Numbered from the stretch's first letter, positions 13,559-50,271 are shown. The stretch is DNA of 64,000 nt from Minisyncoccota bacterium (GCA_026195275.1 JAPHQU010000004.1:3119-67118); one strand, 5' to 3'. Numbers and translations are program-made. The notes: a model not told the origin generated them from the sequence alone.

Positions 13559-13582
13559 GGGTTAAATAAAGAGGAAACATAA

Positions 13583-13618
13583 AAACACAACTCGCGCTTT
13601 CACGCGAGTTGTGTTTTT
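13583..13618 (+). terminator. Rho-independent terminator after rplK
   Basis: AAAAACACAACTCGCGctttcaCGCGAGTTGTGTTTTT. Confidence 0.75.
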
Positions 13619-13682
13619 ACATTCCCGTATGGTACCGTTCCATCAGAAATAAATTGTTCCTAGACACAGAAAGGATAGACTC

Positions 13683-14282
13683 ATGGAACGCTCAGGTATT
13701 CTGTCCTCGGACTGCGCTCCTGAGGAGCGTTTTGTTGAGGATTACACCAAGTTGAAGGATATTGTTGAAGCAATCCGCAAGCTTGGCGGTAAGATCGTTT
13801 TGACAAGCGGTTCGTTTGACCTTGCCCACATCGGTCACGCTCGATATCTCCGCGAAGCCCGTCTGCGTGGTGACTTCCTTGTTGTCGGTGTCGAAAGCGA
13901 CGAGCGCATCCAAATACGTAAAGGACCAAATCGCCCGATCGTCCCTCAACATGAACGCATTGAAGCACTCACTCACCTCCGGTACGTCGACATGGTCACC
14001 CTGAAACATAAGGGTGATGAGTCGTGGATGTTGATCAAGACTGTTCGTCCTGATGTCCTCGTTATCTCAGAACGAACTGGGTATTCCGGCGAAAAGGTCG
14101 AGAGGCTCAGAGAGTTCTGCGGTGAGGTGGTGAATCTTCCCTCCCAAGCGGAGACAAGCACCAGTGCTCGTCTGCGTGAGATGCAGATAGGCGTCCTTGG
14201 TCCAGCAATTGAATCAATGGAAGGAGCTGTAGAAGTACTTGCTGCTGGGCTTACGCGGCTCAGGGGGATGAAAGGAGGGTAG
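13683..14282 (+). CDS. HIGH-motif nucleotidyltransferase (cytidylyltransferase-like; RfaE domain II / GCT family)
   Basis: LTSGSFDLAHIGHARYLREA carries the class I nucleotidyltransferase H.GH motif; 199 aa. Confidence 0.7.
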   Translation: MERSGILSSDCAPEERFVEDYTKLKDIVEAIRKLGGKIVLTSGSFDLAHIGHARYLREARLRGDFLVVGVESDERIQIRKGPNRPIVPQHERIEALTHLRYVDMVTLKHKGDESWMLIKTVRPDVLVISERTGYSGEKVERLREFCGEVVNLPSQAETSTSARLREMQIGVLGPAIESMEGAVEVLAAGLTRLRGMKGG

Positions 14283-14286
14283 GTGT

Positions 14287-15147
14287 ATGAAGAAAATTGC
14301 TATCGCCTACATTCCGGTGCTTCACAGCGGGTATCTGGAGTTTTTCAGAACAATCCCGAGTGACGTACCGCTCTTCATCATCTCCGAAGACCTCATCGCT
14401 TCTTTTGGTGGTGAATTTGACTACCTCAAAAGAAAAGACGCGCTTCGTGCGCTCTCATCCTCTGAGATGGTTAAAGCTGTGCAGGGGCTCAGTCTCTTGC
14501 GGCTCAAGGATGTCCACTCATTGAATGTGCCGGCTGTACACCTTTTGGAGAAAGAAGATCTCTTGATCGTATGTCCGAACGAGGACATCACCCGAGCGGT
14601 TGTAGAAAAATACTTCTCGGGCGCAGAGGTGGAATTCCACTCCATCTTCTTGAGATGGCATCGCGACAATGTTGATGAGCAGAATGCTGTCAGCGCACAT
14701 CGTTCAGTGAACGTTGAATCGCTTCATTATGAAATGATGGAGCGTGCGCAAAAAGAAGCTGACAAGAGCTTCGATTGGTGGCGGCAAGTTGGCGGGGTGT
14801 TGGTTAAAGACAATACTCCTATCTTGTACGCTCGCAACACGCATGTGCCAGATGAACAAGGTTCGAATGTGTTCGGTGATCCGCGCAGTATCTTCAAGCG
14901 AGGAATCCGACTCGACCTCACAACAGCAGAGCATGCCGAAGCGATCTTGATTGTGGAAGCTGCACGCCGTGGAATCTCCACTGAGGGTGCGTGGCTGTAT
15001 GTCACAGCGTTTCCGTGTCCGAGTTGTGCGATGCATATTGCACGGGCAGGAATATCCCGATGCTACTTTAGCGGCGGATACGCAAAGCTTGACGGCGAAT
15101 CGACATTGAAAGATGCCGGTGTCGAACTTGTTCTTTTGGAAACCTAA
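14287..15147 (+). CDS. Fusion of a divergent nucleotidyltransferase-like N-terminal domain with dCMP deaminase
   Basis: N-terminus IAIAYIPVLHSGYLEFF is paralogous to the upstream HIGH motif but degenerate. C-terminus HAEAILIVEAARRG...AFPCPSCAMHIA is the zinc-binding cytidine/dCMP deaminase motif (H.E ... PC..C). Confidence 0.7.
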   Translation: MKKIAIAYIPVLHSGYLEFFRTIPSDVPLFIISEDLIASFGGEFDYLKRKDALRALSSSEMVKAVQGLSLLRLKDVHSLNVPAVHLLEKEDLLIVCPNEDITRAVVEKYFSGAEVEFHSIFLRWHRDNVDEQNAVSAHRSVNVESLHYEMMERAQKEADKSFDWWRQVGGVLVKDNTPILYARNTHVPDEQGSNVFGDPRSIFKRGIRLDLTTAEHAEAILIVEAARRGISTEGAWLYVTAFPCPSCAMHIARAGISRCYFSGGYAKLDGESTLKDAGVELVLLET

Positions 15148-15180
15148 AACCCCCGAGGTCATTGCCTCGGGGGTGTTTTC

Positions 15181-15642
15181 TTATCTCTTCTTGTATCCAA
15201 GCTTGACGCGAAGCTTTTCAGCGTCCTCAGAATGAGGCCCGCCAACTAAGAATTGAGCGTGCAGATGCGCCACCGACGATCCAGTGTAATCCATGTCCCC
15301 AAAACGCATGAACACAGCCCCACCATTCGGCGCATGTTTTTCATTCAGCATGCTCACAAAACGGCCGAATTCAACCCAAGCCTCTTGGTCTACTTCCGTG
15401 ACGTTTGTCGCGTGCAGTTTGTAGACAAGGAGGTAGTGGGCAGAGGTGCCATCGTATGGATAGTCATTTTTGGTAACTACCCACCACTCACCCTCTTCTT
15501 CAATGGGGGAATTGTGGTATTTTTCAAAGTGTTCTCTGCAGAAGGGACAGACGCCGTCTTGTGCAATTTGTTCCATTTGCTTTTGTTGCGCGTCCCCACG
15601 TGTGTGTTTGAAATTCAAAAATGTAGTTTTTTTCTCACGCAT
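15181..15642 (-). CDS. HIT-superfamily protein, GalT-like branch (HxHxQ)
   Basis: CPFC zinc knuckle and VAHLHAQFL (H.H.Q) motif, typical of the GalT/Ap4A-phosphorylase branch of the HIT superfamily. Confidence 0.65.
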   Translation of the reverse strand: MREKKTTFLNFKHTRGDAQQKQMEQIAQDGVCPFCREHFEKYHNSPIEEEGEWWVVTKNDYPYDGTSAHYLLVYKLHATNVTEVDQEAWVEFGRFVSMLNEKHAPNGGAVFMRFGDMDYTGSSVAHLHAQFLVGGPHSEDAEKLRVKLGYKKR

Positions 15643-15713
15643 AGATTTGTGTGTATCTAAAATAGTATCACCATGGCTCTAAAAAGAAAAAGCCCGACAC
15701 ATTCTGTGCGAGC

Positions 15714-16217
15714 TTATCTCCTTCGTTTATATTCGAAGAAGTCGAAAGGAAATTTATCTTCTGGCTGCCGGGTACCTTCTTTGTGTACCACAAGCTTCCA
15801 TTCTCTCGAATCCAATTTTGGGAAGGTTGCATCTCCTTCGACACCATCATCGTGGACTACGGTCAGGTAGATATACTCCGTAGATGGGAGGGCGAGTCGG
15901 TATATTTCTCCGCCTCCGATGACAAAGACCGCTTTACTCTCTCGAGCGCCGACAGCCAGTGCATCCTCAAGTGTCGATACCACTTCGCACCCTTCAACCT
16001 CCAAACCACTTTGGCGCGTGAGGATAACATTCACGCGTTTTGGCAATGGCTTTCCAATGGACTCAAAAGTCTTTCGGCCCATAACAACCACGGAGCCGAT
16101 GGTGAGCTCTCGGAAGTGACGAAGATCACTCGGCAAGCGCCACAGCAACCTTCCATTACCACCGATAACTCGTTTTTCGTTTATCGCGACAATGAGAGAT
16201 GGTTTTTCTGTATGCAT
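15714..16217 (-). CDS. folA: Dihydrofolate reductase
   Basis: LIVAINEKRVIGGNGRLLWRLPSDLRHFRELTIGSVVVMGRKTFESIG is classic DHFR. The internal Met is chosen as the start. Confidence 0.9.
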   Translation of the reverse strand: MHTEKPSLIVAINEKRVIGGNGRLLWRLPSDLRHFRELTIGSVVVMGRKTFESIGKPLPKRVNVILTRQSGLEVEGCEVVSTLEDALAVGARESKAVFVIGGGEIYRLALPSTEYIYLTVVHDDGVEGDATFPKLDSREWKLVVHKEGTRQPEDKFPFDFFEYKRRR

Positions 16218-16227
16218 CACCACCTCC

Positions 16228-17124
16228 TTAAATCGCAACCGGTATTTCAAGCCCCGGGTGAGGATCGTACTCTTCAAGCTCGAAATGATGCGGCCGGAAG
16301 TCGAAGAGGTTTTTCACACCCGGATCGACTTTGAGAATCGGAAACGGACGCGGTACACGGCTCAAGACCGTCCGGACTTCTTCAACTTGGTCCGCGTAGA
16401 TGTGTGCGTCCGAGAACGAATGACTGTACTGCGCCGGCTCAAGTCCGGTCACCTGCGCAACCGCAAGCAGAAGCGCGAAGTACTGAACCATGTTGAACGG
16501 TACCCCGATCGGCATGTCAGCGCTCCTTTGAAACATGTGCAGATACAGTTTCCCGTTGAGAACCCGGAAGTGCATCCATCCATGGCACGGTGAGACGACT
16601 GCCTTCTGCAGTTCACTACCCCAGCCGTTGTAAAACGGAATCCAAGGATGCACAAAGATGGTGCGCCGCTTGTAGTTTTCCGGGTTTTGCAACTGCTCGA
16701 CAGCGTGAGCGAGCTGATTGAACCCTTGTCCGTCAGGCATGGGGAAATCGTGGAACGCTGCGCCATAGGAGCCGGGACCGAGGTCACCAACCGGGACACC
16801 AATCTTGGTGCACTTCCGTTCACTTGCCCACTTTCCCCACCAAGTCACCCCAAATTCTTTGAGGGTGTCGAGGTCGCGGGCGCCGTTGATGAACGCCAGG
16901 ATTTCGCCGACGCCGGCTTTCCAGGGGATTTTACGTTCGGTAATGACGGGTGCTCCGTTTTGAACGGGGAACACCATCGGTGCGAGTTCCCCAAAGCAGG
17001 TCAATGCCCCGACATCCTGAGGGGTTTCCTTCTCGAGACGTCCGTCATCGAGGATGTGCCACAAACGATCCTGATACTGTGTATCGGGCGTACGTTCTTC
17101 AAGGGTACGATAAAACATCGCCAT
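16228..17124 (-). CDS. thyA: Thymidylate synthase (ThyA)
   Basis: RRTIFVHPW, SPCHGWMHF (catalytic Cys-His), QRSADMPIGVPFNMVQY (Asn indicates dUMP specificity), and C-terminal YDPHPGLEIPVAI. Confidence 0.9.
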   Translation of the reverse strand: MAMFYRTLEERTPDTQYQDRLWHILDDGRLEKETPQDVGALTCFGELAPMVFPVQNGAPVITERKIPWKAGVGEILAFINGARDLDTLKEFGVTWWGKWASERKCTKIGVPVGDLGPGSYGAAFHDFPMPDGQGFNQLAHAVEQLQNPENYKRRTIFVHPWIPFYNGWGSELQKAVVSPCHGWMHFRVLNGKLYLHMFQRSADMPIGVPFNMVQYFALLLAVAQVTGLEPAQYSHSFSDAHIYADQVEEVRTVLSRVPRPFPILKVDPGVKNLFDFRPHHFELEEYDPHPGLEIPVAI

Positions 17125-20405: not shown

Positions 20406-23400
20406 ATGATTATGAAAAACGACCCTGGAAAGGCTCCCGAGGAGAAGAGTGGTGTTGCAAAGCGTGAGGAGGGGGTCCTCGCATTTTGGCATACAAATAA
20501 TGTCTTCAAGAAATCCGAAGAAAAACCGGCACCAAAAGGAGAATATGTCTTTTACGATGGGCCACCGTTTGCGACCGGGCTTCCGCACTACGGTCACTTG
20601 CTTGCGAGTACTATTAAAGACGCGATACCACGCTACCAGAGTATGCGTGGTCATCGGGTCGTGCGTAAGTGGGGGTGGGACTGCCACGGGCTTCCTCTTG
20701 AGAACGAGATAGAAAAGGAATTGGGTCTTACGACCAAGCGAGACATCGAGAGTCTGGGTATTGCGAAGTTCAATGAAGCGGCGCGCGATGCGGTGCTTCG
20801 CTATGCTGACGATTGGAAGAAGATCATACCGCGGATGGGGCGGTGGGTCGACATGGAGAGCGACTACAAGACCATGGATACCTCGTACACCGAATCGGTG
20901 TGGTGGGTATTCAAAACGCTCTACGACAAAAAAAGTATTTACCAAGGGTTCAAATCAATGCACCTTTGCCCACGTTGTGGCACCACACTCTCGAACTTTG
21001 AAGTGAATCAAGGATATAAAGATACAACCGACATCTCTGTATACGTCGGGCTTAAACTTAAAGATGAGCAGGATACGTCTCTTATTGTGTGGACTACAAC
21101 ACCATGGACGCTACCCGGCAACATGGCAGCGGCAGTGAACAAGGATGTCGAGTACGTCACAGTCGAGAAAAAGGATGAAGGTGGACTCACTCGCTTTATT
21201 GTCGCAAAAGATAAACTCAAAGATGTTTTCGGTGATGATGAATATACCATCGTCGATACATACAAAGGTGAGGAACTTATCGGCAAATCGTATATCCCGC
21301 CGTTTGATTACTACAAAGATAAGAACATCGAGCATAAAGAGAACGCGTGGAAGGTTTACCACGCAGACTATGTTTCAGTTGAGGATGGAACCGGTGTGGT
21401 GCACCTTGCTCCCGCTTTCGGTGAAGAGGACCTAGTGCTTGCTCAACAAGAGGACATCCCGGTCGTACACCACGTAACACCGGAGGGTGTATTTGCACAA
21501 GAAGTGTCTGACTTTGCTGGTATGTTTGCAAAGCCAAAAGATGACCCGCTTGCAACTGATATCGAGATCATTAAGGCGCTCTCCGCGCGCGGCGCGCTCT
21601 TTAAAAAACAGAAGGTAACACACAGCTATCCGTTTTGTTGGCGTTGTGATACGCCGCTTCTTAACTATGCGACATCGTCGTGGTTTGTACGCGTAACTGA
21701 TTTTAAAGACAAGCTTGTTTCAGAGAACAAAAAAGTTGGGTGGATTCCAAAAGATGTCGGCACACATCGATTCGGCAACTGGCTTGAGAATGCACGCGAT
21801 TGGGCGATCTCACGCTCGCGCTATTGGGGCGCACCACTACCGGTATGGCTAAACGAGAAAGAGGAAAAAGTGCGGGTCATGGGATCAGTCGAGGACCTGA
21901 AGAAATATATTGCATCTTCAGGTAATACCTACTTTATGATGCGTCACGGCGAGGCGGTACATAACACTAAGAACACACTGAACGCAAAGGACTCAGTGGA
22001 GAATCCGGTGACGGAAGAAGGAAGGAAACAAGTGTATGAAGCGGCCAAGCTCTTTAACGGAAAGAGCATTGACCTAATCATACACTCTCCATTACAGCGG
22101 ACGCGCGAGACAGCTGAGCTTCTTGCGTCTGAACTCAAGCTCCCTGGATCACAACTTCGCGAAGATGCCCGCCTCACGGAAGTAAATGTCGGGTTGTTTG
22201 AAGGGAAGACAATTGATGAGTACCACGCGTTCTTTGCTGACTCGCGAGAGCGTATGAGTAAGCGACCCGAAGGAGGAGAGAATTGGGGTGAGGTCAAACG
22301 ACGTGTGAGTGAGGTGCTCTACGAGCTCGAGCGAGAATATAAAGATAAAAAGATATTGATCATCTCGCACAACGGACCACTTGAGATGATTCAAGCGGGT
22401 GCGCTCGGGTATGATGTTGATCAATGCGGGGAAGCGATCAAAGATAATCGTTTTGACATGTCGGTCGGCGAGGTGCGTAAACTTCCGTTCATACCGCTTC
22501 CGCATAATACTCTGTTTGAGCTTGACCTACACCGTCCATACATTGATGAGATCACTCTTATTGATACAGACGGCAGCGAGTTGAAACGGATTCCTGATGT
22601 GTTTGACTGCTGGTTTGAATCTGGCTCCATGCCGTACGGGCAGCAGCACTATCCATTTGAGAATACTGATGTCTTCGAGCCAAAGAGCGGATGGTTCAAA
22701 CGAGCGAAAGGCTACCCGGCGGACTTTATCGCGGAAGGAATGGACCAAACGAGAGGCTGGTTCTACTCGCTCATTGTCCTTGGCGTCGGGCTCTTTGGTC
22801 ACTCCCCATACAAGAATGTGATTGTGAACGGTCTCGTGCTTGCGGAAGATGGTCGCAAGATGAGCAAGCGACTCAAGAACTATCCTGATCCGGCATATAT
22901 TTTAAACACCTATGGAGCTGATGCGCTTCGCTACTACCTTCTCTCATCACCGATTGTTCGCGGGGAAGACCTCAATTTCTCTGAAAAGGGTGTTGATGAA
23001 GTGATGAAGAAACTCTTGGTGCGTCTTGAAAACGTATATTCGTTTTATGCACTCTACGTCGAGGATGGAACAGTGCCACAAAGCGTGGCCAGCAAGAATA
23101 TTCTGGACCAGTGGATTCTCTCACGACTCAATGAACTCACTCTTGAGATAACCGGTGCGATGGAACGCTATGAGCTCGACCGCGCGACGCGTCCGATCGG
23201 ACTCTTTATTGATGATCTTTCGACGTGGTATATACGCCGCTCACGTGAGCGCTTTAAGAGCAATGATGTGGAGGATCGTGCGCATGCTCTTGAGACAACG
23301 CGCACTGTTCTCATGGGGCTCAGTAAGGTCATGGCGCCATTCATGCCATTTTATGCGGAAGCACTCTACCAGGAGCTCAAAAAAGAGGACGATCTGGAGA

Positions 23401-23930
23401 GTGTACACCTCTGCGAGTGGCCTGAGGCAGGGAAGAGTAACAAGGAGGCGCTTGAAGATATGGCAGTGGTGCGCCGGCTCGTATCGCTCGGCCTCGAAGC
23501 TCGCGCTAAAGCGGGCACGAAGGTGCGTCAGCCGCTTGCGGAGCTCAAAGTTAGAAGTGAAAAGTTAAAAGGAAAGATGAAACTTCTCGAACTAATCGAG
23601 GACGAAGTGAATGTGAAGAAGATCTCGTTTGATACCTCGCTATCAGAAGAGGTTGAGCTCGACACCGAGCTCACCGATGAGTTGAGACAAGAAGGACTCG
23701 TACGCGATCTTATCAGGCGTATCCAGCAGTTTAGAAAAGAGAACGACCTTACACCGCAAGAGAAGGTGGCAATTATCATCGATACTGATGAGCACCTTAA
23801 GGAAGCGTTTGTGGGCGCGAAGACTGAGATTATGAATGCGACGCTTCTCTCAGACCTCACTTTTGGTTTTGTAGAAGGAGAGAAGGAGACCGTTGACGGG
23901 CATCCGTTTGCGTTCTCACTTAGTAAGTAG
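20406..23930 (+). CDS. ileS: Isoleucyl-tRNA synthetase with an in-frame inserted histidine-phosphatase (PGM-like) domain
   Basis: PPFATGLPHYGHLL (HIGH), TTPWTLPGN (CP1 editing) and KMSKRLKN (KMSKS) are present. An extra ~170 aa lies between the CP region and DLHRPYIDEITL; it contains RHGEAVHN, SPLQRTRETAE and ISHNG motifs. Confidence 0.9.
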   Translation: MIMKNDPGKAPEEKSGVAKREEGVLAFWHTNNVFKKSEEKPAPKGEYVFYDGPPFATGLPHYGHLLASTIKDAIPRYQSMRGHRVVRKWGWDCHGLPLENEIEKELGLTTKRDIESLGIAKFNEAARDAVLRYADDWKKIIPRMGRWVDMESDYKTMDTSYTESVWWVFKTLYDKKSIYQGFKSMHLCPRCGTTLSNFEVNQGYKDTTDISVYVGLKLKDEQDTSLIVWTTTPWTLPGNMAAAVNKDVEYVTVEKKDEGGLTRFIVAKDKLKDVFGDDEYTIVDTYKGEELIGKSYIPPFDYYKDKNIEHKENAWKVYHADYVSVEDGTGVVHLAPAFGEEDLVLAQQEDIPVVHHVTPEGVFAQEVSDFAGMFAKPKDDPLATDIEIIKALSARGALFKKQKVTHSYPFCWRCDTPLLNYATSSWFVRVTDFKDKLVSENKKVGWIPKDVGTHRFGNWLENARDWAISRSRYWGAPLPVWLNEKEEKVRVMGSVEDLKKYIASSGNTYFMMRHGEAVHNTKNTLNAKDSVENPVTEEGRKQVYEAAKLFNGKSIDLIIHSPLQRTRETAELLASELKLPGSQLREDARLTEVNVGLFEGKTIDEYHAFFADSRERMSKRPEGGENWGEVKRRVSEVLYELEREYKDKKILIISHNGPLEMIQAGALGYDVDQCGEAIKDNRFDMSVGEVRKLPFIPLPHNTLFELDLHRPYIDEITLIDTDGSELKRIPDVFDCWFESGSMPYGQQHYPFENTDVFEPKSGWFKRAKGYPADFIAEGMDQTRGWFYSLIVLGVGLFGHSPYKNVIVNGLVLAEDGRKMSKRLKNYPDPAYILNTYGADALRYYLLSSPIVRGEDLNFSEKGVDEVMKKLLVRLENVYSFYALYVEDGTVPQSVASKNILDQWILSRLNELTLEITGAMERYELDRATRPIGLFIDDLSTWYIRRSRERFKSNDVEDRAHALETTRTVLMGLSKVMAPFMPFYAEALYQELKKEDDLESVHLCEWPEAGKSNKEALEDMAVVRRLVSLGLEARAKAGTKVRQPLAELKVRSEKLKGKMKLLELIEDEVNVKKISFDTSLSEEVELDTELTDELRQEGLVRDLIRRIQQFRKENDLTPQEKVAIIIDTDEHLKEAFVGAKTEIMNATLLSDLTFGFVEGEKETVDGHPFAFSLSK
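21920..22480 (+). other. Inserted histidine phosphatase superfamily domain (branch 1, phosphoglycerate-mutase-like) within ileS
   Basis: Catalytic RHG(E) ... SPLxRTxETA ... (I)SHNG motifs in the right order and spacing for a complete PGM-like fold. Confidence 0.75.
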
Positions 23931-40078: not shown

Positions 40079-40829
40079 TTGTTGTTAAAATCCGATAAGC
40101 GTGCTGTAGGCGTGTTGTATGAAATATCTTTGTTTCTAGCCGTATATACCCAATACCCAATACATGACCTCTAATCCCTCACGACGCGTTGACTTTTTGA
40201 GTGAAAAGCGTAGTATGTACAGCAATGGATGTTAGCGAACACCCAACCCTGAAATAGGGGATAAGCGGGCCGAATACGGTCCTCTTTGTTGTTGTGTTTG
40301 TTTCCGTGGAGTGGATCTCCACAAAAGGACGTTGTCCTTTTATCCACACATACTGTTTTGTGAGTACATTCAAGACGGATATAATTTGCTTAAGCAGTCT
40401 CGCAGGTGCGAGATGTGAATTGGGCGAACCATCAGTTACGAATTGCACGCAACAGTATCGGGCAGATCGTTGACAATTTCATACAGTTCAGAAGCAGCAT
40501 GCTCTCGCCGAGCGACTTTGTCGTTTTGTGGGTGCATACGTTACAGATACACCAGTACCACCACGGAAGCTTTGAAGTCCGCATGACAGACTAAACACTC
40601 TTGCCTGCTAAACTCGTCCCTTGTCGATATTCAGAGGCGAGATTAGTGAAGGAAAAATATCGCATGTGAACAGCTTCACTGCTCGGTCGCAAAACAGAGC
40701 ACGGAGTTGAACACAGAAAAGGACGGACATATTTTTGGTCGAAAGAAAATAGGTCCGTACCTAAATGACGTTTGTGTGTCTGTCGACACACAGGCACACA
40801 AAGGCATTTATAGGAAATTAAAGGTCACT

Positions 40830-43800
40830 ATGATTAACACATTAGAAACACGAAAAGTTGTAACAGCGCTTATCGTTGTTGCAATGATCTTCGGTGCACT
40901 CTTCGCATTCACTACCGTGAAGGCGCAGGCGCTCACCGAGGCTCAGATTCAGTCGATCCTCTCGCTCCTCTCATCATTTGGAGCTGAGCAGGCAACTATC
41001 GACAATGTTGACGCTTCCCTCCGTGGACAGCCAACATCAGGAACCGGATCAACAGGAGGAACGACAGCATGTTCGTTCACACGATCACTTACGATCGGTG
41101 CAACAGGTGCTGACGTGACATGTCTTCAGACATACCTTGAAGGTACTGGACACTTCACGTGGACAGGTGCCAAGGGTTACTTCGGTACTATTACCCAGTC
41201 AGCTGTAGCCGCATGGCAGGCAGCAAACGGAGTCTCACCAGCAGTTGGATACTTCGGCCCAATTTCACAGGCGAAGTACACAGCAGTAGCAGGAACAACT
41301 GGTGGCACCACAGGTGGCACCACTACTCCCGCACCAACAGGAACAGGACTCTCAGTTGCAGCAGCAGCACAGCCAGCAGCATCACTCGCGCCAAATAGCG
41401 CGGCACGCGTACCATTCACAAAGTTCACGGTTACCGCCGGAACTGACGGAGCGGTTACGATGAACAGCGTTACTGTTGAGCGAACAGGTCTCGGAGCAGA
41501 CGCATCATTCTCAGGAGTAGTTCTTCTTGATCAGGATGGTACACAGCTCGGAACCGCGAAGACATTCAACTCAAACCACCAGGCAACAATTGGTGAGGAT
41601 GTAGTAGTCCCAGCAGGGTCAACCCGCACCTTCACCGTTGCAGGTAACATGGCTTCAGACAACTCTACCCGAGCGGGACAGGTTGTTGGAATCAATGTAG
41701 TTGCGGTTAACACCTCAGCTGCGGTTTCAGGTTCACTTCCAATCACTGGAGCAATGCACACCATCAACGCAACCCTTTCACTTGGGTCAGTAACGATGGC
41801 AGTGTCTTCATTCGACCCGAACTCAGCACAGACCAAGGAGATCGGATCAACCGGCGTACGATTCGCTGGAATCCAGATCACTGCAGGTTCAGCAGAGGAC
41901 GTTCGAATCAAGAACATCCGATGGAACCAGTCAGGTTCAGCAGGAAAGGATGATATCGCAAACGTAGTTACTGTTGCAAACGGAGTAGCGTACCCAACCA
42001 CAGTTTCATCTGATGGTAAGTACTACACAACTTCATTTGGAAACGGTATTGTTATCGGAAAGGGTAACAACATCGATATCTACGTAAAGGGTGACATCAT
42101 CGGTGGTTCAAACCGAACAGTCATCTTCGACATCTACAAGACGACTGATCTCTACATCACCGGAGAAACCTACGGATACGGAATCACACCTCCAGCAGGA
42201 AGTGGTACTGCAGCAACGACTTCATCAGTCTTCACTGCAGGGACTCCGTTCTTCGACAACGCAACAATGACGATCTCAGCTGGATCAGCTTCAACGATCC
42301 AGAAAGCGATCTCAGTTGCGTCACAGAACATTGCTGTCAACGTTCCAAATCAGCCACTTGGCGGATTTGAGACCGACATCAAGGGTGAAGCGATCAACAT
42401 TGCAGGTTTGACCGTTACGGTTGCAACCTCATCAGGATCAGGAACAGGAGTCTTGACCAACGTATCAATCGTTGATCAGAACGGCTCAGTTGTTGCAGGT
42501 CCAGTTGACGCGGACACCGCAGGAACTTCATTAGTCTTCACCGACTCAATGACCCTTCCAACAGGAAAGATGGTCTACACCATCAAGGGTAAGGTAGCTT
42601 CAGCTATCGGAAACGGTACTGTCTACACCCTTTCTGTTACCCCTTCTGGCTGGACAACTCCAGTTGGAAACGTAACGGGAGACTCAATCACGATTTCACA
42701 GGGAGTATTCACGCTTAACCCAATGACGGTTAAGGCGGCTGACCTCAACGTGAGCGTGGCACCAAACCCAGTTGCACAGAACATTGTGGCAGGAGCGCAG
42801 GGTTACACCTTCGCGAACTACCAGTTCGACGCAACGCAGTCAGGTGAGGATGTACGATTCTCATCAATGGTTGGATTGCTTAACGGCAGCACAAACGCTA
42901 CCGCAGGTGCGTACAGCAACTTGACGTCATGTCAGTTGTGGGATGGTTCAACTGCGTTGAACGGCGGTTCAAACGTAGTTAATCCGACAGCAGCTGCAAC
43001 ATCATCTGCAAGCACCAACACCTTTACCTTCGACAACACTCTTACTGTTGCAAAGGGAACGGTTAAAACATTGGCACTCAAGTGTAACCTCTCAAGCTCA
43101 GCTGATACGGCTTCGACCTATCAGTGGGGTATTGCAGCAGTTGACGCTAACATCTCAGTTACCGGTGTAACCTCATCGGTTGCAGTTACAGAGGACGTTA
43201 CCGCATCTAACGGTCAGCTTATGACCGCAGCAGCAGGAACCCTCGTAGCTTCAGAAGACGCATCAAGTCCTTCATACGCAATTGTGAAGGCAGGATCAAC
43301 TGGAGTAACAAATGGAATCATCAACTTCCACGCTGCAAACGAATCAGTAACGATCCAGCGCATTGGTCTTACCCTTACGAATGCAACCGCATCATCAACC
43401 TCAAGCGACCTCGTACGAGCAACCTTGTGGGATGGTTCAACCATGATTGGTGACGCATACTTCGTAGGTGCAAACACCAACGCAACGTCAACTCTTTCAA
43501 CACCGGTAACGGTCGCGAAGGACTCTGACAAGGACATTACCGTTAAGCTTGACCTTGCATCAGTTGGCGCAAGCCAGTCTGGTAACCAGGGAGCGCTTAT
43601 CGCAGTCGATGTTGACACCAACGGAACCAACACCCAAGGTGTTGGAACCTCAGGAACCACCATCAACGCATCAGGTTCAACTTCGTTCTCAGGAGTACGT
43701 ATGTTCTCATCGTACCCAACGATTACCAAGCAGGCTGTTCCATCAACCGCCTTGGTTAACGGAGTCATGGATCTTTACCGATTCAGCGTAACGGCGAGCG

Positions 43801-44321
43801 CCGGAGGAAATGGAGTTGGTATCCACCAGTTCACCATCAACCTCTCAACCTCATCAGCAAGCGCTGTATCAGGTACAACCACAGTTACATTGGTAGACGT
43901 ATACGCGTACACCGATGCGAGCTACTCAACGCCTGTATCAGGCTACACGAGCGGTAAAGTTATTACCCAACTCGCAAGCCTCGCAGGTTCTGGAGACAAT
44001 GACGCACAGTTGTCATCAATCCTCCAGATCCCAGCAGGAGCTACCTACTACTTCCGAGTAACAGGTACAGTTACATTGACGGCAGGAACAGGAACCTTCT
44101 CAGGATCGGTTACAACCCGACTTGGAGGTGACTCAACCTACCCATCACTGTCAACACTCATGGGAGCACAGGCGTCAGTTGACGGAACAAGTCCGGACAA
44201 CTTTGTGTGGTCGCCAAACGCGACAACAACGTCAGCAGCAGGTCATGTTGACTGGACAAACGGTTACTTCATCTCAGGACTTCCATCGGATGGTTCAGAG
44301 GTCGTAACATTGTCTAAATAG
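40830..44321 (+). CDS. Giant secreted cell-surface protein: signal peptide + peptidoglycan-binding domain + ~1000 aa of Ser/Thr/Gly/Ala-rich Ig-like repeats
   Basis: Signal peptide MINTLETRKVVTALIVVAMIFGALFAFTTVKAQA. PG_binding_1-like motif LTIGATGADVTCLQTYLEG...GYFGTITQSAVAAWQAANG. The remainder is low-complexity beta-rich repeats. Confidence 0.7.
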   Translation: MINTLETRKVVTALIVVAMIFGALFAFTTVKAQALTEAQIQSILSLLSSFGAEQATIDNVDASLRGQPTSGTGSTGGTTACSFTRSLTIGATGADVTCLQTYLEGTGHFTWTGAKGYFGTITQSAVAAWQAANGVSPAVGYFGPISQAKYTAVAGTTGGTTGGTTTPAPTGTGLSVAAAAQPAASLAPNSAARVPFTKFTVTAGTDGAVTMNSVTVERTGLGADASFSGVVLLDQDGTQLGTAKTFNSNHQATIGEDVVVPAGSTRTFTVAGNMASDNSTRAGQVVGINVVAVNTSAAVSGSLPITGAMHTINATLSLGSVTMAVSSFDPNSAQTKEIGSTGVRFAGIQITAGSAEDVRIKNIRWNQSGSAGKDDIANVVTVANGVAYPTTVSSDGKYYTTSFGNGIVIGKGNNIDIYVKGDIIGGSNRTVIFDIYKTTDLYITGETYGYGITPPAGSGTAATTSSVFTAGTPFFDNATMTISAGSASTIQKAISVASQNIAVNVPNQPLGGFETDIKGEAINIAGLTVTVATSSGSGTGVLTNVSIVDQNGSVVAGPVDADTAGTSLVFTDSMTLPTGKMVYTIKGKVASAIGNGTVYTLSVTPSGWTTPVGNVTGDSITISQGVFTLNPMTVKAADLNVSVAPNPVAQNIVAGAQGYTFANYQFDATQSGEDVRFSSMVGLLNGSTNATAGAYSNLTSCQLWDGSTALNGGSNVVNPTAAATSSASTNTFTFDNTLTVAKGTVKTLALKCNLSSSADTASTYQWGIAAVDANISVTGVTSSVAVTEDVTASNGQLMTAAAGTLVASEDASSPSYAIVKAGSTGVTNGIINFHAANESVTIQRIGLTLTNATASSTSSDLVRATLWDGSTMIGDAYFVGANTNATSTLSTPVTVAKDSDKDITVKLDLASVGASQSGNQGALIAVDVDTNGTNTQGVGTSGTTINASGSTSFSGVRMFSSYPTITKQAVPSTALVNGVMDLYRFSVTASAGGNGVGIHQFTINLSTSSASAVSGTTTVTLVDVYAYTDASYSTPVSGYTSGKVITQLASLAGSGDNDAQLSSILQIPAGATYYFRVTGTVTLTAGTGTFSGSVTTRLGGDSTYPSLSTLMGAQASVDGTSPDNFVWSPNATTTSAAGHVDWTNGYFISGLPSDGSEVVTLSK

Positions 44322-47154: not shown

Positions 47155-50100
47155 ATGCGTAACCTTTGGATAGTTTTTATACTTCTTCTCTTACTCAATC
47201 CTGGCGTATCGCTTGCAAATTGTAGTGAGGACGGGTCCACGGTTGTTTATGTTAATGGGATTTTTACAGGATTGGGAAAAGCAAAAGATGACCTCGGTCT
47301 TTTTGGTAATCTGTATAGTATAAGAAATCCCAAAGATAAGGTTTCTTTCATAAACGGCTACAACCCATCTCATTTAGCCGGTCTTGGGGATGCGGTACAG
47401 GTTGTCTCGCAAGCGATGGGGTCGTCGGTTAATAGTTATGACCTCAAGACGATCTTGATGCAGATTCACTCTGAGGTGAAAACGCGAAAGATACTTCTGG
47501 TTGGGCACTCGCAAGGTGCCTTTTATACAAATGAACTTTACGGTTATCTCACTGAGCACGGCGTTCCAGAAGAATCAATAGCTGTTTATAACCTCGCCTC
47601 GCCAGCGGGGTTTGTTGCAGGGGAAGGGTCTTATCTCACTTCAGCAAATGATGGTTTAGTAAATAACGTGCGCGAGTGGACAGCTGCTGTGGGTATACAA
47701 AATCCACTTCCGGCAAATATCCTCATCCCACTTGCGCGTCCGGAGCTCGATGAGCTCTTACGCGGACATTCGTTCAGTGAGGAGTATCTGGCAGGCGCGG
47801 CGAAGACCATCATCGCCGACATTACTGAGTCACTCAACTCCCTTGGTTTAGAGGATGAAACTGTCGAAAGTGAAGGGTGTTTTGACGCGCCTGCAGAGGA
47901 TTTCTCATATCAGATGCAACACACAGTTTTTGCCATGGTAGACCCTGCCGCACAGATAACACAAGAGGTTGCGGCCGCGGCGGGAAGGGCACTTGCGGCA
48001 GTTGGTGTTGCTATCACTCAGATCATTGGTGGAACGGGCATTAGCGCGGGGGACGACGCTTCACAACAAGATAGCCTGGGCACAGACAATGATTCATCAA
48101 AAACAATTTTTGAGCTCGTTCTCCCGCCTGTGCCTAATGAGGTCTTAATAAAACTTGCTGCGGCAAGTACCGATGATACCGGCGAAGACACAACACAGCA
48201 AAATTCTGATGACGACGCTCTCTATGATTCTGATACTTTGTCTGTTTCTGAGGGTGAGTCAGGTAGCTCGGATACATCGAGGACACAGGGTGAAGAGAGT
48301 GTAGAAGCTCCGTCCGAACCACGAATTGACTACGGTGGTGGCACACCGAAGATAGACTACAGTAGCAACACAGGCGATGAGCAAAATGTTGTCGGAAGCG
48401 AAGACGAGGTCGGTGATGATGAGGGCGATGAAGACAGTGAGGGTGATGCGGCAGACGAAGGAGAAGATGATGGTTCGAATGATGATTCTTCAGAAGGAGA
48501 TGATGGTGGTGATTCTTCCGAGGGCGATGAGGAGGAAGAAGAGGGTTCTGACGAGGGTTCCGAGGATAACGATTCAGAATCTGACGATGAAAGTGACAAT
48601 GAAGACAACGGCAATAATGAAGATGAAGAAGAGGGTGATGACGAGAACACTGAAGAAGACGACAACGAAGAGAATCAAGAAGGATTTACTGTTGCGTATT
48701 CAGAGGACACGACACAATCTGCAACGAGTACGATTACGTTCTCAGGTACTGGCGCTCCGGGTGATACCATCGCACAAGATTTTTCTGATGAGGTAACGAC
48801 GGTGGATGAGAATGGATTGTGGGAACTCACCGTGACTGATCTTCCGGACGGGGAGACCACTATTATCTTTAGCGAATTAAATGACAATGAAGAGGTGGTT
48901 GATACGGTGAGTATATCAGTGAGTGTTGAGACACCGCTGAAGGGGCTCAGTGTTGCGGAATGTGCGCACTCGCTGCGCACAGACGCATGTCTTCTGGGAG
49001 GGGCGGGGAGCGTGTCGTTTTCGTGGGATTTTGATGAGGGAGAGTTGTACCGCGTGACGCTTAACGGAGCGAGTGTTGAGGAGACAAGCGCGACATCGTC
49101 TTCAGTTACACTTGGGGTTGGTGAACATACGGTTGAGGTTTCCGCGCTTGATGTGGAAGGAAGTATTGCAACCTCGAGCACGCAGGACATTGAGGTGTTT
49201 GAAATGCCAATTGTAATTAATGAGATAGCGTGGGCGGGAACTCAAGCGAGTGCCGCCGATGAGTGGATTGAGCTCTACAACCGCACCAACTACACACTCG
49301 ACCTCTCGCATGTGGTACTTTATGCAGAAGACCTAGTGCCGTACTTGGAACTTGCGGGACCAGTTGCATCAAAGAGCTACTATCTCATTGAGCGTGGCGA
49401 CTCGAATACAACGAGTGCCGCTGAGGATATTGTGCTGGCATTTAGTGGACAGGGAAGCGGTAGTGGGCTCTCAAACAGCGGCGAGGTGCTCTATCTCGCG
49501 CAGGCTTTTGGCAGTATTGCAACAACGACACTTGACCGGACGCCCGACCTTGCTTCGTGCGGCGGTGGGTGGTGTGGCGGCGATGCGAGCAGCAAGACGT
49601 CGATGGAGCGCAAGGATGTCGATGTTGCGGGAGACGATCCGTCGAACTGGAATTCAAATAATACGTATACGGTGAATGATACCGATGAAGCCGGTGGAGT
49701 GATGTACTGCACACCAAAGTCACAGAATAGTATCTCCATTCTCACAGTTGGTTACTATTGTCCGAATGAGACTGAGAGTTATGTTGCTGGGCAAGCGTAT
49801 ACGCCGGTGAGTGGCACGTGCACATATCTCTCGGAGAATCTTTCGGGGAACCGGTATGGCGATTTGTACCGCGGAGTGGTTGGGAGCGCGACAATCGTGA
49901 ACGGACACTCGCTTGGAACAAACCCTTCGAGTACCCAGAATAATGACAGTGTTGCTGACCCGGTCGACGGCGAGAATATGTTTGCGGCAATGTATGAGAT
50001 TCATGATAATAGCGACGTCGCGAACTTCAGGAGTTTCTTCCAGATGGGTTCTAATCCGCCGCCGCATCTCTGGTATGGAATTGTTCCGTGGGTATATTTG

Positions 50101-50271
50101 GTACCAGCAGAGGAATCGTCGGGTGGTGAATCAAATGATGACGACACGGACTCTGATGATGAATCTGATCCAGAATCATCAGGTGGAGATTCTTCTACGC
50201 CACCGGGAGGACCAGGAGGACCGCCGAGTGGCCCACCTGGCGGGCCGGGAGGACCTGGTGGCCCTTTCTAG
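47155..50271 (+). CDS. Giant secreted protein: N-terminal alpha/beta-hydrolase (lipase-like, GHSQG) + acidic low-complexity region + lamin-tail domain (LTD) + Pro/Gly-rich C-terminus
   Basis: Signal peptide; LLVGHSQGAF nucleophile elbow; D/E/S/G-rich linker; IVINEIAWAGTQASAADEWIELYNRTNYTLDLSHVVL is a canonical LTD signature; C-terminal PPGGPGGPPSGPPGGPGGPGGPF. Confidence 0.7.
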   Translation: MRNLWIVFILLLLLNPGVSLANCSEDGSTVVYVNGIFTGLGKAKDDLGLFGNLYSIRNPKDKVSFINGYNPSHLAGLGDAVQVVSQAMGSSVNSYDLKTILMQIHSEVKTRKILLVGHSQGAFYTNELYGYLTEHGVPEESIAVYNLASPAGFVAGEGSYLTSANDGLVNNVREWTAAVGIQNPLPANILIPLARPELDELLRGHSFSEEYLAGAAKTIIADITESLNSLGLEDETVESEGCFDAPAEDFSYQMQHTVFAMVDPAAQITQEVAAAAGRALAAVGVAITQIIGGTGISAGDDASQQDSLGTDNDSSKTIFELVLPPVPNEVLIKLAAASTDDTGEDTTQQNSDDDALYDSDTLSVSEGESGSSDTSRTQGEESVEAPSEPRIDYGGGTPKIDYSSNTGDEQNVVGSEDEVGDDEGDEDSEGDAADEGEDDGSNDDSSEGDDGGDSSEGDEEEEEGSDEGSEDNDSESDDESDNEDNGNNEDEEEGDDENTEEDDNEENQEGFTVAYSEDTTQSATSTITFSGTGAPGDTIAQDFSDEVTTVDENGLWELTVTDLPDGETTIIFSELNDNEEVVDTVSISVSVETPLKGLSVAECAHSLRTDACLLGGAGSVSFSWDFDEGELYRVTLNGASVEETSATSSSVTLGVGEHTVEVSALDVEGSIATSSTQDIEVFEMPIVINEIAWAGTQASAADEWIELYNRTNYTLDLSHVVLYAEDLVPYLELAGPVASKSYYLIERGDSNTTSAAEDIVLAFSGQGSGSGLSNSGEVLYLAQAFGSIATTTLDRTPDLASCGGGWCGGDASSKTSMERKDVDVAGDDPSNWNSNNTYTVNDTDEAGGVMYCTPKSQNSISILTVGYYCPNETESYVAGQAYTPVSGTCTYLSENLSGNRYGDLYRGVVGSATIVNGHSLGTNPSSTQNNDSVADPVDGENMFAAMYEIHDNSDVANFRSFFQMGSNPPPHLWYGIVPWVYLVPAEESSGGESNDDDTDSDDESDPESSGGDSSTPPGGPGGPPSGPPGGPGGPGGPF

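Follow-up and report, generated by a model that had tools for sequence, protein, structure and literature searches.

A dCMP-type deaminase with an undescribed N-terminal domain in a conserved thymidylate module of Patescibacteria

In a 64,000-nucleotide stretch of DNA from a Minisyncoccota bacterium (GCA_026195275.1 JAPHQU010000004.1:3119-67118; hereafter the window), positions 13683-17124 hold five genes, among them that of a fusion protein in which a predicted zinc deaminase of the deoxycytidine monophosphate (dCMP) type follows an N-terminal domain (N-domain) that is previously undescribed and specific to this family. [quoted passage not shown] What is new here is the combination of a dCMP-type deaminase and an undescribed accessory domain within a rigid, lineage-specific thymidylate module; no evidence yet points to a categorically new mechanism. 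The Candidate Phyla Radiation (CPR) or Patescibacteria are a large, mostly uncultured bacterial group with minimal, host-dependent nucleotide metabolism. Open reading frame (ORF) calling returned all five genes where the original prediction, a first reading of the sequence alone, had placed them. Its gene identities are established by Pfam matches to CTP_transf_like, dCMP_cyt_deam_1, DHFR_1 and Thymidylat_synt, and the motifs it quoted are present (LHSGY at residues 12-16, HAE at 216-218 and PCPSC at 243-247 of the fusion; CPFC at 32-35 and HLHAQ at 126-130 of the HIT protein). Full-length homologues of the genes were found at E 1e-60 to 1e-188, far past chance.

About 200 full-length homologues of the fusion, sharing 41-70% identity and a length of about 285 amino acids, all derive from Patescibacteria and carry no database names other than 'deaminase', 'dCMP deaminase' or 'hypothetical'; the window protein is 100% identical to one of them (P0001, 'deaminase [Ca. 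Pacebacteria]'). When a single genome was scanned for each GTDB species, relatives were detected in at least 559 genomes of Patescibacteria. A survey of gene neighbourhoods, suggested along with the original prediction, was based on 82 non-redundant loci, in which ORFs were called and scored with profiles from the window proteins; a second pass consisted of an unbiased all-against-all clustering of the proteins at these loci. The module recurs throughout. Around the fusion (82/82 loci), CTase is found directly upstream on the same strand in 81/82, the HIT/DHFR family in 80/82 and ThyA in 73/82, followed by L11 (54/82), NusG (51/82), dUTPase (40/82), SHMT (33/82), ArgRS (23/82), Tmk (16/82) and FolD (14/82). 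The CTase-fusion and HIT-ThyA arrangements are fixed while the position of DHFR varies, as it may be located upstream, between HIT and ThyA, or fused to HIT. In the called genes, measured from stop to start, CTase and the fusion overlap by up to 4 bp or are separated by up to 11 bp. The gene set is a lineage-wide thymidylate module, probably for deoxythymidine monophosphate (dTMP) synthesis, and specific to Patescibacteria (Parcubacteria/Paceibacteria), and its least-explained members, CTase and the HIT protein, are more tightly linked to it than dUTPase or SHMT.

The N-domain (residues 1-128, 14287-14670) carries the motifs YxPxxHxGY, (R)K(D/E)xxR, P(D/x)ED and FLR. Across 82 species P10 is strictly invariant (82/82), and H13, G15 and Y16 are retained in 80, 81 and 80, respectively; K50 occurs in 77/82 (plus 5 with Arg), R54 in 79/82, the residues E99/D100 are also near-invariant, and F121, L122 and R123 are kept in 80, 79 and 81 of 82. 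A near-invariant H-x-G-Y together with about ten other residues indicates that the N-domain is under strong selection and not a decaying relic, which is difficult to reconcile with its earlier description as degenerate and catalytically dead. Pfam returned no match for 42 members at E<=10 and none for residues 1-146 of the window protein, nor was the domain matched in a PDB sequence profile search, in PHROGs or PADLOC, or by tblastn against 50,697 phage records; the earlier view that such an extension of a deaminase is unusual agrees with these results. Searched with a profile, 1.84 billion cluster representatives yielded 564 proteins with the N-domain, which is invariably N-terminal in proteins about 280 amino acids long and among these representatives is known only in fusion with this deaminase. 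Short matches that had raised the suspicion of standalone N-domain proteins proved to be truncated or frameshifted fragments.

In a Foldseek search with the full-length protein, matches to the deaminase domain prevailed, and the N-domain was therefore modelled and searched on its own. The AlphaFold2 model (pLDDT 88, pTM 0.81), from which the fold class is taken, is five-stranded and Rossmann-like with the order β1-HxGY-α1-β2, placing HxGY at the β1-α1 junction. In the PDB, 1wjg, an ATP-binding protein of the USP family, matches best (E 0.016, TM 0.45; weak), and in BFVD a viral cytidyltransferase-like protein (E 4.8e-3, TM 0.53; weak); the better-superposing BFVD matches include citrate lyase ligase, ECT, another cytidyltransferase (CT)-like protein and NMNAT (TM 0.45-0.53). 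We take all these matches to belong to the HUP class and accordingly predict a Rossmann/HUP-type fold for the N-domain. In H13-x-G15-Y16, situated at the β1-αA junction, the first His and the Gly of the HIGH signature are kept, and the second His is a Tyr in 80/82 sequences; the C-terminal ISST/RTEGISTT phosphate-binding motif is absent, with F121-L-R123-W-H-R-D-N found after β5 instead. Of the nucleotidyltransferase-like fold assumed in the original prediction, the Rossmann-like core with HxGY at β1-α1 is thus recovered in the model, but the supporting matches are weak (TM 0.45-0.53, none with E <1e-3).

The N-domain had also been regarded as a paralogue of the neighbouring CTase. BLASTP between the two gives an E value of 2.7, and hhalign against the CTase homologues a probability of 0.2%. 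A relaxed local hhalign run does pair HxGY of the N-domain with HxGH of CTase, and RKD with RKG, at a score of 13.45, but column-shuffled controls (n=150) reach the same level with a mean of 13.6 +/- 2.7, and the paralogy is therefore rejected as unsupported. HIGH nucleotidyltransferases in general (GCT/TagD, CCT, ECT, HldC/HldE domain II, NMNAT) have the strand/helix order and the His-x-Gly at the β1-α1 junction in common with the N-domain, although the fold matches are weak; the N-domain departs from them in having Tyr for the second His, in carrying FLR and (R)K(D/E)xxR motifs of its own and in showing no sequence or profile similarity, its hhalign score lying at the level of the shuffled controls. 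The combination of an intact CTase and an adjacent CT-like N-domain recalls the tandem CT domains of ECT.

CTase itself (13683-14282, plus strand, 199 amino acids) is a bona fide member of the HIGH family and contains all of its motifs, HxGH, RKGxxRP, RYVD and TSTS. It matches Pfam PF01467 CTP_transf_like at 4e-16 (59.9 bits versus a cutoff of 21) with a literal H49-I-G-H52, and H49, G51, H52, K80, G81, P85, E91, R92, T160 and R165 are invariant among its homologues. In the PDB, it matches ECT (3elb, 1.6e-30) and HldC (5x9q, 1.3e-24). The NCBIfam equivalog for heptose adenylyltransferase (TIGR02199, rfaE_dom_II) is the best-matching model only, its score of 106.3 bits (1e-30) lying below the cutoff of 181.5. 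On the basis of its motifs, CTase is predicted to be a catalytically intact nucleotidyltransferase of the HldC/HldE-domain-II/ECT type.

The second domain of the fusion (residues 145-286, 14719-15147) is delimited by Pfam, PDB and Foldseek matches, which together with the N-domain model establish the domain boundaries. Residues 147-261 match PF00383 dCMP_cyt_deam_1 at 3.8e-15 (56 bits versus a cutoff of 25), and the zinc motifs HxE (H216-A-E218) and PCxxC (P243-C244-x-x-C247) retain H216, E218, C244 and C247 in 82/82 sequences each. The best PDB profile matches are dCMP deaminases (4p9c at 1.5e-18, phage T4 1vq2, S. mutans 2hvv and human 2w4l), as is the best Foldseek match (1.5e-9), and the PHROG family 'dCMP deaminase' matches the domain at 6e-25. 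With the classical dCMP deaminases (DCTD/ComEB; T4 Cd 1vq2, S. mutans 2hvv, cyanophage S-TIM5 4p9c), the fusion has in common the fold, HxE and PCxxC, a conserved Asn closing strand 2, a Tyr preceding helix 4 and the genomic partnership with ThyA and DHFR. In contrast, the classical enzymes are devoid of the extra 128-residue N-terminal domain and possess a second, structural zinc, the NA motif and G(Y/W)N(A/G)xP, none of which is found in the fusion, where N-x-H-x-P occurs.

These deviations concern features by which the clade is recognized, namely the second zinc site, NA after HxE and NxxP as defining features of dCMP deaminases/ComE (Iyer et al. 2011, PMC3239186), and G(Y/W)N(A/G) as the allosteric motif of DCTD (PMC12088426). 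In the clade, two Cys and a His of a bihelical insert form the second zinc site together with a Cys between helix 1 and strand 1. In the fusion the insert 189-212 is devoid of Cys or His ligands, S-x-D-W-W-R being present at the position of the latter Cys and, together with F-G-D-P-R, replacing the second zinc site. HxE continues as HAEAILI, compared to HAEQNA in the canonical deaminase of locus L004, which unlike the fusion has both the zinc insert and the NA motif. The allosteric position reads [AGTS]-[HYF]-N184-x-H186-x-P188, i.e. NxxxP and not NxxP, with the Asn and Pro strictly kept (82/82), and the fourth position of the DCTD-type motif is never Ala or Gly in the 82 species. The Tyr between strand 4 and helix 4 is maintained as G264-Y265 (Tyr in 80/82) and aligns with the canonical Y135. 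Two models for dCTP-consuming enzymes also match part of the domain, NCBIfam 'anti-phage dCTP deaminase' (NF041025) at 2.9e-17 over residues 215-277 with 62.7 bits against a cutoff of 400, and PADLOC dCTPase at 8.9e-18 over residues 211-281. We conclude from motifs and matches that the C-terminal domain is a divergent member of the dCMP-deaminase clade and predict it to be a zinc deaminase. In a Campbellbacteria genome (L004/L005, 3458-5045 and 8897-9319), genes for a canonical 165-residue dCMP deaminase, for an AAA_17/18 kinase and for Tmk lie a short way upstream of the module, and one for a dUTPase lies downstream of it; canonical and fused deaminases therefore coexist.

The HIT-family protein (15181-15642, minus strand, 153 amino acids) contains C32-P-F-C35 and H126-L-H128-A-Q130. 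The window protein itself has no Pfam match, and its assignment comes from its orthologues, 24/26 of which match Pfam HIT PF01230 (best 1.6e-10), and from a profile search of the PDB, in which Hint-like chains are matched at 1.7e-5 and the Ap4A phosphorylase 3ano at E 0.5. It has 306 homologues. Among the orthologues, which are single-domain proteins of about 150 amino acids with a Hint-like CxFC, C32-x-x-C35, H126 and H128 are invariant, and the third position of the triad is His in 52 and Gln in 26 of 78, so that HLHAQ of the window protein represents the minority form. As this position is His in two thirds of the orthologues, the proposed affiliation with the GalT/Ap4A-phosphorylase branch fails at the family level. 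In 28 related loci a second, longer HIT paralogue (median 196 amino acids, H-x-H-x-N, with an extra N-terminal Cys-rich segment) sits between the fusion and the ThyA-proximal HIT gene (e.g. L012 7884-8462, L015 7900-8430, L020 7896-8456); it is absent from the window.

The DHFR gene (minus strand) spans 15714-16277 as the longest ORF, with a probable ATG start at 16217, and its product matches Pfam DHFR_1 at 5.2e-54 over residues 27-185. Gene fusions of DHFR and HIT, 300-337 amino acids long, are found in about 12 related loci, including L002, L004, L008, L009, L019, L023, L025, L053, L069 and L076; in that of L002 (5924-6937) Pfam confirmed DHFR at residues 7-175 and HIT at residues 241-310. 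Such fusions are a Rosetta-stone link of the HIT protein to the folate/thymidylate cycle. Clustering or fusion of dCMP deaminase, thymidylate synthase and DHFR with an enzyme producing deoxynucleoside monophosphates is also encountered in phage T4 (cd, td, frd and the gp56 dCTPase/dUTPase) and in protozoan DHFR-TS; the module differs from these systems by its HldC-like nucleotidyltransferase and its Hint-like, sometimes DHFR-fused, HIT partner. We know of no role of either enzyme type in dTMP synthesis, and literature searches on the deaminase fusion, on DHFR-HIT fusions and on a tie of CTase or HIT to thymidylate synthesis returned nothing relevant.

ThyA (16228-17124, minus strand, 298 amino acids) belongs to a divergent clade. 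It matches Pfam Thymidylat_synt PF00303 at 1.3e-63 (215 bits), TIGR03284 with 174.6 bits versus a cutoff of 108.35, and thymidylate synthase in the PDB at 8e-55. In E. coli numbering, C146, H147, E58, R166, S167, D169, N177 and H207 are kept in 75-76/76 sequences, and the retention of N177, the Asn in the substrate pocket, indicates uracil specificity as originally predicted. In structures of the E. coli enzyme R21, R126', R127' and R166 are ligands of the phosphate of deoxyuridine monophosphate (dUMP). In the module, the residue at position 21 is Gln in 58 sequences, Pro in 6 (including the window) and Arg in 5, and that at position 127 is Thr in 76/76, while position 126 (Arg/Lys) and R166 are kept. 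Thus, two of the four classical phosphate-binding arginines are changed; in addition, a conserved 7-residue basic insertion follows W133 (IPQYxxRGxGKQQK). Mutagenesis of thymidylate synthases has shown that, of the phosphate arginines, only R166 is strictly essential, and the changes in the module ThyA are therefore compatible with ordinary activity.

Taken together, these data suggest the following scenario, which we consider moderately probable. The fusion would act in a Paceibacteria dTMP module as the deaminase supplying uracil nucleotides, either dUMP or, via the often-adjacent dUTPase, dUTP; ThyA would methylate the uracil deoxynucleotide and DHFR would recycle the folate. The deaminase-ThyA-DHFR succession proposed earlier as a route from dCMP to dTMP is plausible and is reinforced by the frequent dUTPase, SHMT, Tmk and FolD neighbours. 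The HUP-type N-domain, with H-x-G-Y at the position that serves HIGH nucleotidyltransferases and USP proteins for binding nucleotide phosphates, may bind a nucleotide such as dCTP, CTP or dTTP and thereby control or feed the deaminase, in place of or in addition to the canonical intersubunit allosteric site, which has an altered signature motif in the fusion. The fusion would probably cooperate with CTase, the HldC-like nucleotidyltransferase that is coupled to it in translation and has kept its catalytic motifs. Nucleotide binding by the N-domain, its regulatory or feeding role and the identity of the deaminase substrate are what we infer in this scenario from conservation, model and context.

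Several points weigh against it. All fold matches of the N-domain are weak (TM <=0.53, none with E <1e-3), and Pfam, PDB profile and hhalign searches provide no sequence-level tie to any nucleotide-binding family. The invariant N184, D198 and R200 could form a modified allosteric site in the deaminase domain, which would make a sensor domain needless. CTase and the HIT protein are given no function, though they are the tightest-linked partners. Finally, the canonical 165-residue enzyme adjoining the module in Campbellbacteria suggests that the fusion may do something other than plain dCMP deamination, and the heavily conserved charged residues of the N-domain are as compatible with catalysis as with binding. 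If catalytic, the N-domain would represent a HIGH-type variant for nucleotidyl transfer or pyrophosphatase action, generating dCMP out of dCTP (or out of a dCMP conjugate) for direct delivery to the fused deaminase and so filling the step from dCTP to dCMP. The near-invariance of H13, G15, Y16, K50, R54, E99/D100 and R123 is typical of active sites, HxGY occupies the place of HxGH in HIGH enzymes, the obligate fusion to the deaminase suits substrate channelling, and the module is without an evident dedicated dCTP-to-dCMP enzyme. Nevertheless, we judge such an activity unlikely since the second His of HxGH is replaced, FLRWHRDN is found instead of the ISST-type motif, no statistical relationship to any nucleotidyltransferase was detected, and an intact nucleotidyltransferase is already encoded next door. 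Rather unlikely in our estimate, albeit compatible with the favoured scenario, is a zinc dCTP deaminase that, like CDADC1 or PBCV-1 bi-DCD, makes dUTP for dUTPase, the N-domain aiding triphosphate binding or oligomer stability. The classical DCTD features (second zinc site, NA and G(Y/W)N(A/G)) are absent, the C-terminal core is matched by the dCTP-deaminase models of NCBIfam and PADLOC, dUTPase adjoins the module in 40/82 loci, and one genome encodes a canonical dCMP deaminase as well. Human CDADC1, a two-domain (d)CTP deaminase, offers a precedent for a fused extra domain replacing classical allostery (PMC12088426): it is likewise DCTD-like with an added N-terminal domain and no longer uses the canonical allosteric site, as is predicted for the fusion. 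Its extra domain, however, is an inactive deaminase domain and not Rossmann/HUP-like, and CDADC1 is vertebrate-restricted with a known substrate, whereas the fusion is Patescibacterial. Moreover, the closest sequence and fold matches are dCMP deaminases, the model matches extend over only about 65 residues around PCxxC (62.7 bits versus a cutoff of 400), and dUTPase is required anyway for dUTP sanitation.

The same NCBIfam (2.9e-17) and PADLOC (8.9e-18) matches to the C-terminal core might be taken as a sign of an anti-phage, dCTP-depleting enzyme similar to DcdV (NF041025), which also combines an N-terminal domain of nucleotide-binding type with a C-terminal dCMP-deaminase-like domain. The N-domain of DcdV is P-loop kinase-like and resides in a defence context, whereas that of the fusion is Rossmann-like with HxGY in a thymidylate housekeeping context, among genes for ThyA, DHFR, ribosomal proteins and tRNA synthetases, that at least 559 species have in common; in addition, about 65 residues are matched at a score far under the cutoff, and the N-domain was not found by tblastn in the phage records. 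On these grounds of architecture and context a defence system is rejected, and its probability appears negligible. It is also conceivable that CTase and the HIT protein are unrelated housekeeping passengers that have stayed in place only through inheritance of the gene order, in genomes that are small and rearrange slowly, and that the N-domain is purely structural or serves oligomerisation. All loci come from one lineage, the entire secE-nusG-rplK ... argS region is syntenic in several relatives, and the literature searches gave no biochemistry tying HldC-like or Hint-like enzymes to dTMP synthesis. We doubt this explanation because the frequencies of the CTase-fusion pair (81/82) and HIT (80/82) exceed those of the flanks (L11 54, NusG 51, ArgRS 23) though DHFR moves, because about 12 genomes encode HIT as a fusion with DHFR and the CTase-fusion gap is confined to minus 4 to plus 11 bp, and because the invariant polar and charged residues of the N-domain go past the needs of a scaffold. 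A far more speculative idea, to which we assign a very low probability, is that the five genes form a pathway in which the pyrimidine deoxynucleotide is handled as a 5'-nucleotidyl conjugate and not as free dCMP or dUMP. Here, the HldC-like CTase would make a (d)NMP-linked conjugate from a nucleoside triphosphate, the CT-like N-domain would grip its handle during the deamination of cytosine to uracil, ThyA with its altered phosphate pocket and basic insertion would methylate the conjugate, and the HIT enzyme, sometimes fused to DHFR, would release dTMP or dTDP. If true, free dUMP and dUTP would be kept low in a cell with minimal repair capacity. The dUTPase and Tmk genes often adjoining the module argue for the use of free dUMP and dTMP and hence count against the conjugate.

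In the window, the genes appear to be organized in two convergent operons, CTase-fusion and thyA-folA-HIT, as indicated by two hairpins. One of them (15149-15174), located between the two convergent units, resembles a bidirectional intrinsic terminator with a perfect stem of about 10-11 bp, 8 GC pairs and T-runs on either strand; the other, a long hairpin with a 20-bp stem (13577-13622), was found by the terminator-like scan and by reading the sequence, lies 3' of rplK and forms the upstream boundary of the CTase-fusion unit. Sigma-70-like promoter matches were not found between 13400 and 17400 (0 versus 3.3 expected). The window represents ordinary chromosomal DNA of a Candidatus Pacebacteria/Paceibacterota (CPR) genome. 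Upstream of the locus it carries secE-nusG-rplK and downstream argS and ileS, while recA, ftsK and the genes of several tRNA synthetases are found elsewhere in it. The GC content of 0.47-0.52 across the region resembles that of the remaining window, and with no such anomaly horizontal transfer is not indicated. The large ORFs elsewhere in the window include no further nucleotide-metabolism genes. The isoleucyl-tRNA synthetase (20406-23930, 1174 amino acids) carries a His_Phos_1 histidine-phosphatase domain inserted at residues 510-674, an architecture also called in the relative L001. Two further large ORFs are conspicuous, one of 1038 amino acids (47155-50271) with zero Pfam matches and one of 1204 amino acids (40707-44321) whose sole Pfam match is a weak peptidoglycan-binding domain.

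One large bacterial lineage apparently builds dTMP with a rewired set of enzymes that comprises an altered deaminase, a ThyA with an altered phosphate pocket, CTase and the HIT protein. The module is widespread and clearly under selection, and it raises testable questions on dUMP supply and dNTP regulation in CPR bacteria. Working out the functions of CTase, the HIT protein and the N-domain could fill the poorly defined supply step from dCTP to dCMP/dUMP, and could define a new domain family and a new mode of regulating the dNTP balance. Even if their roles turn out to be trivial, a domain now labelled 'deaminase' or 'hypothetical' would receive a clean annotation.

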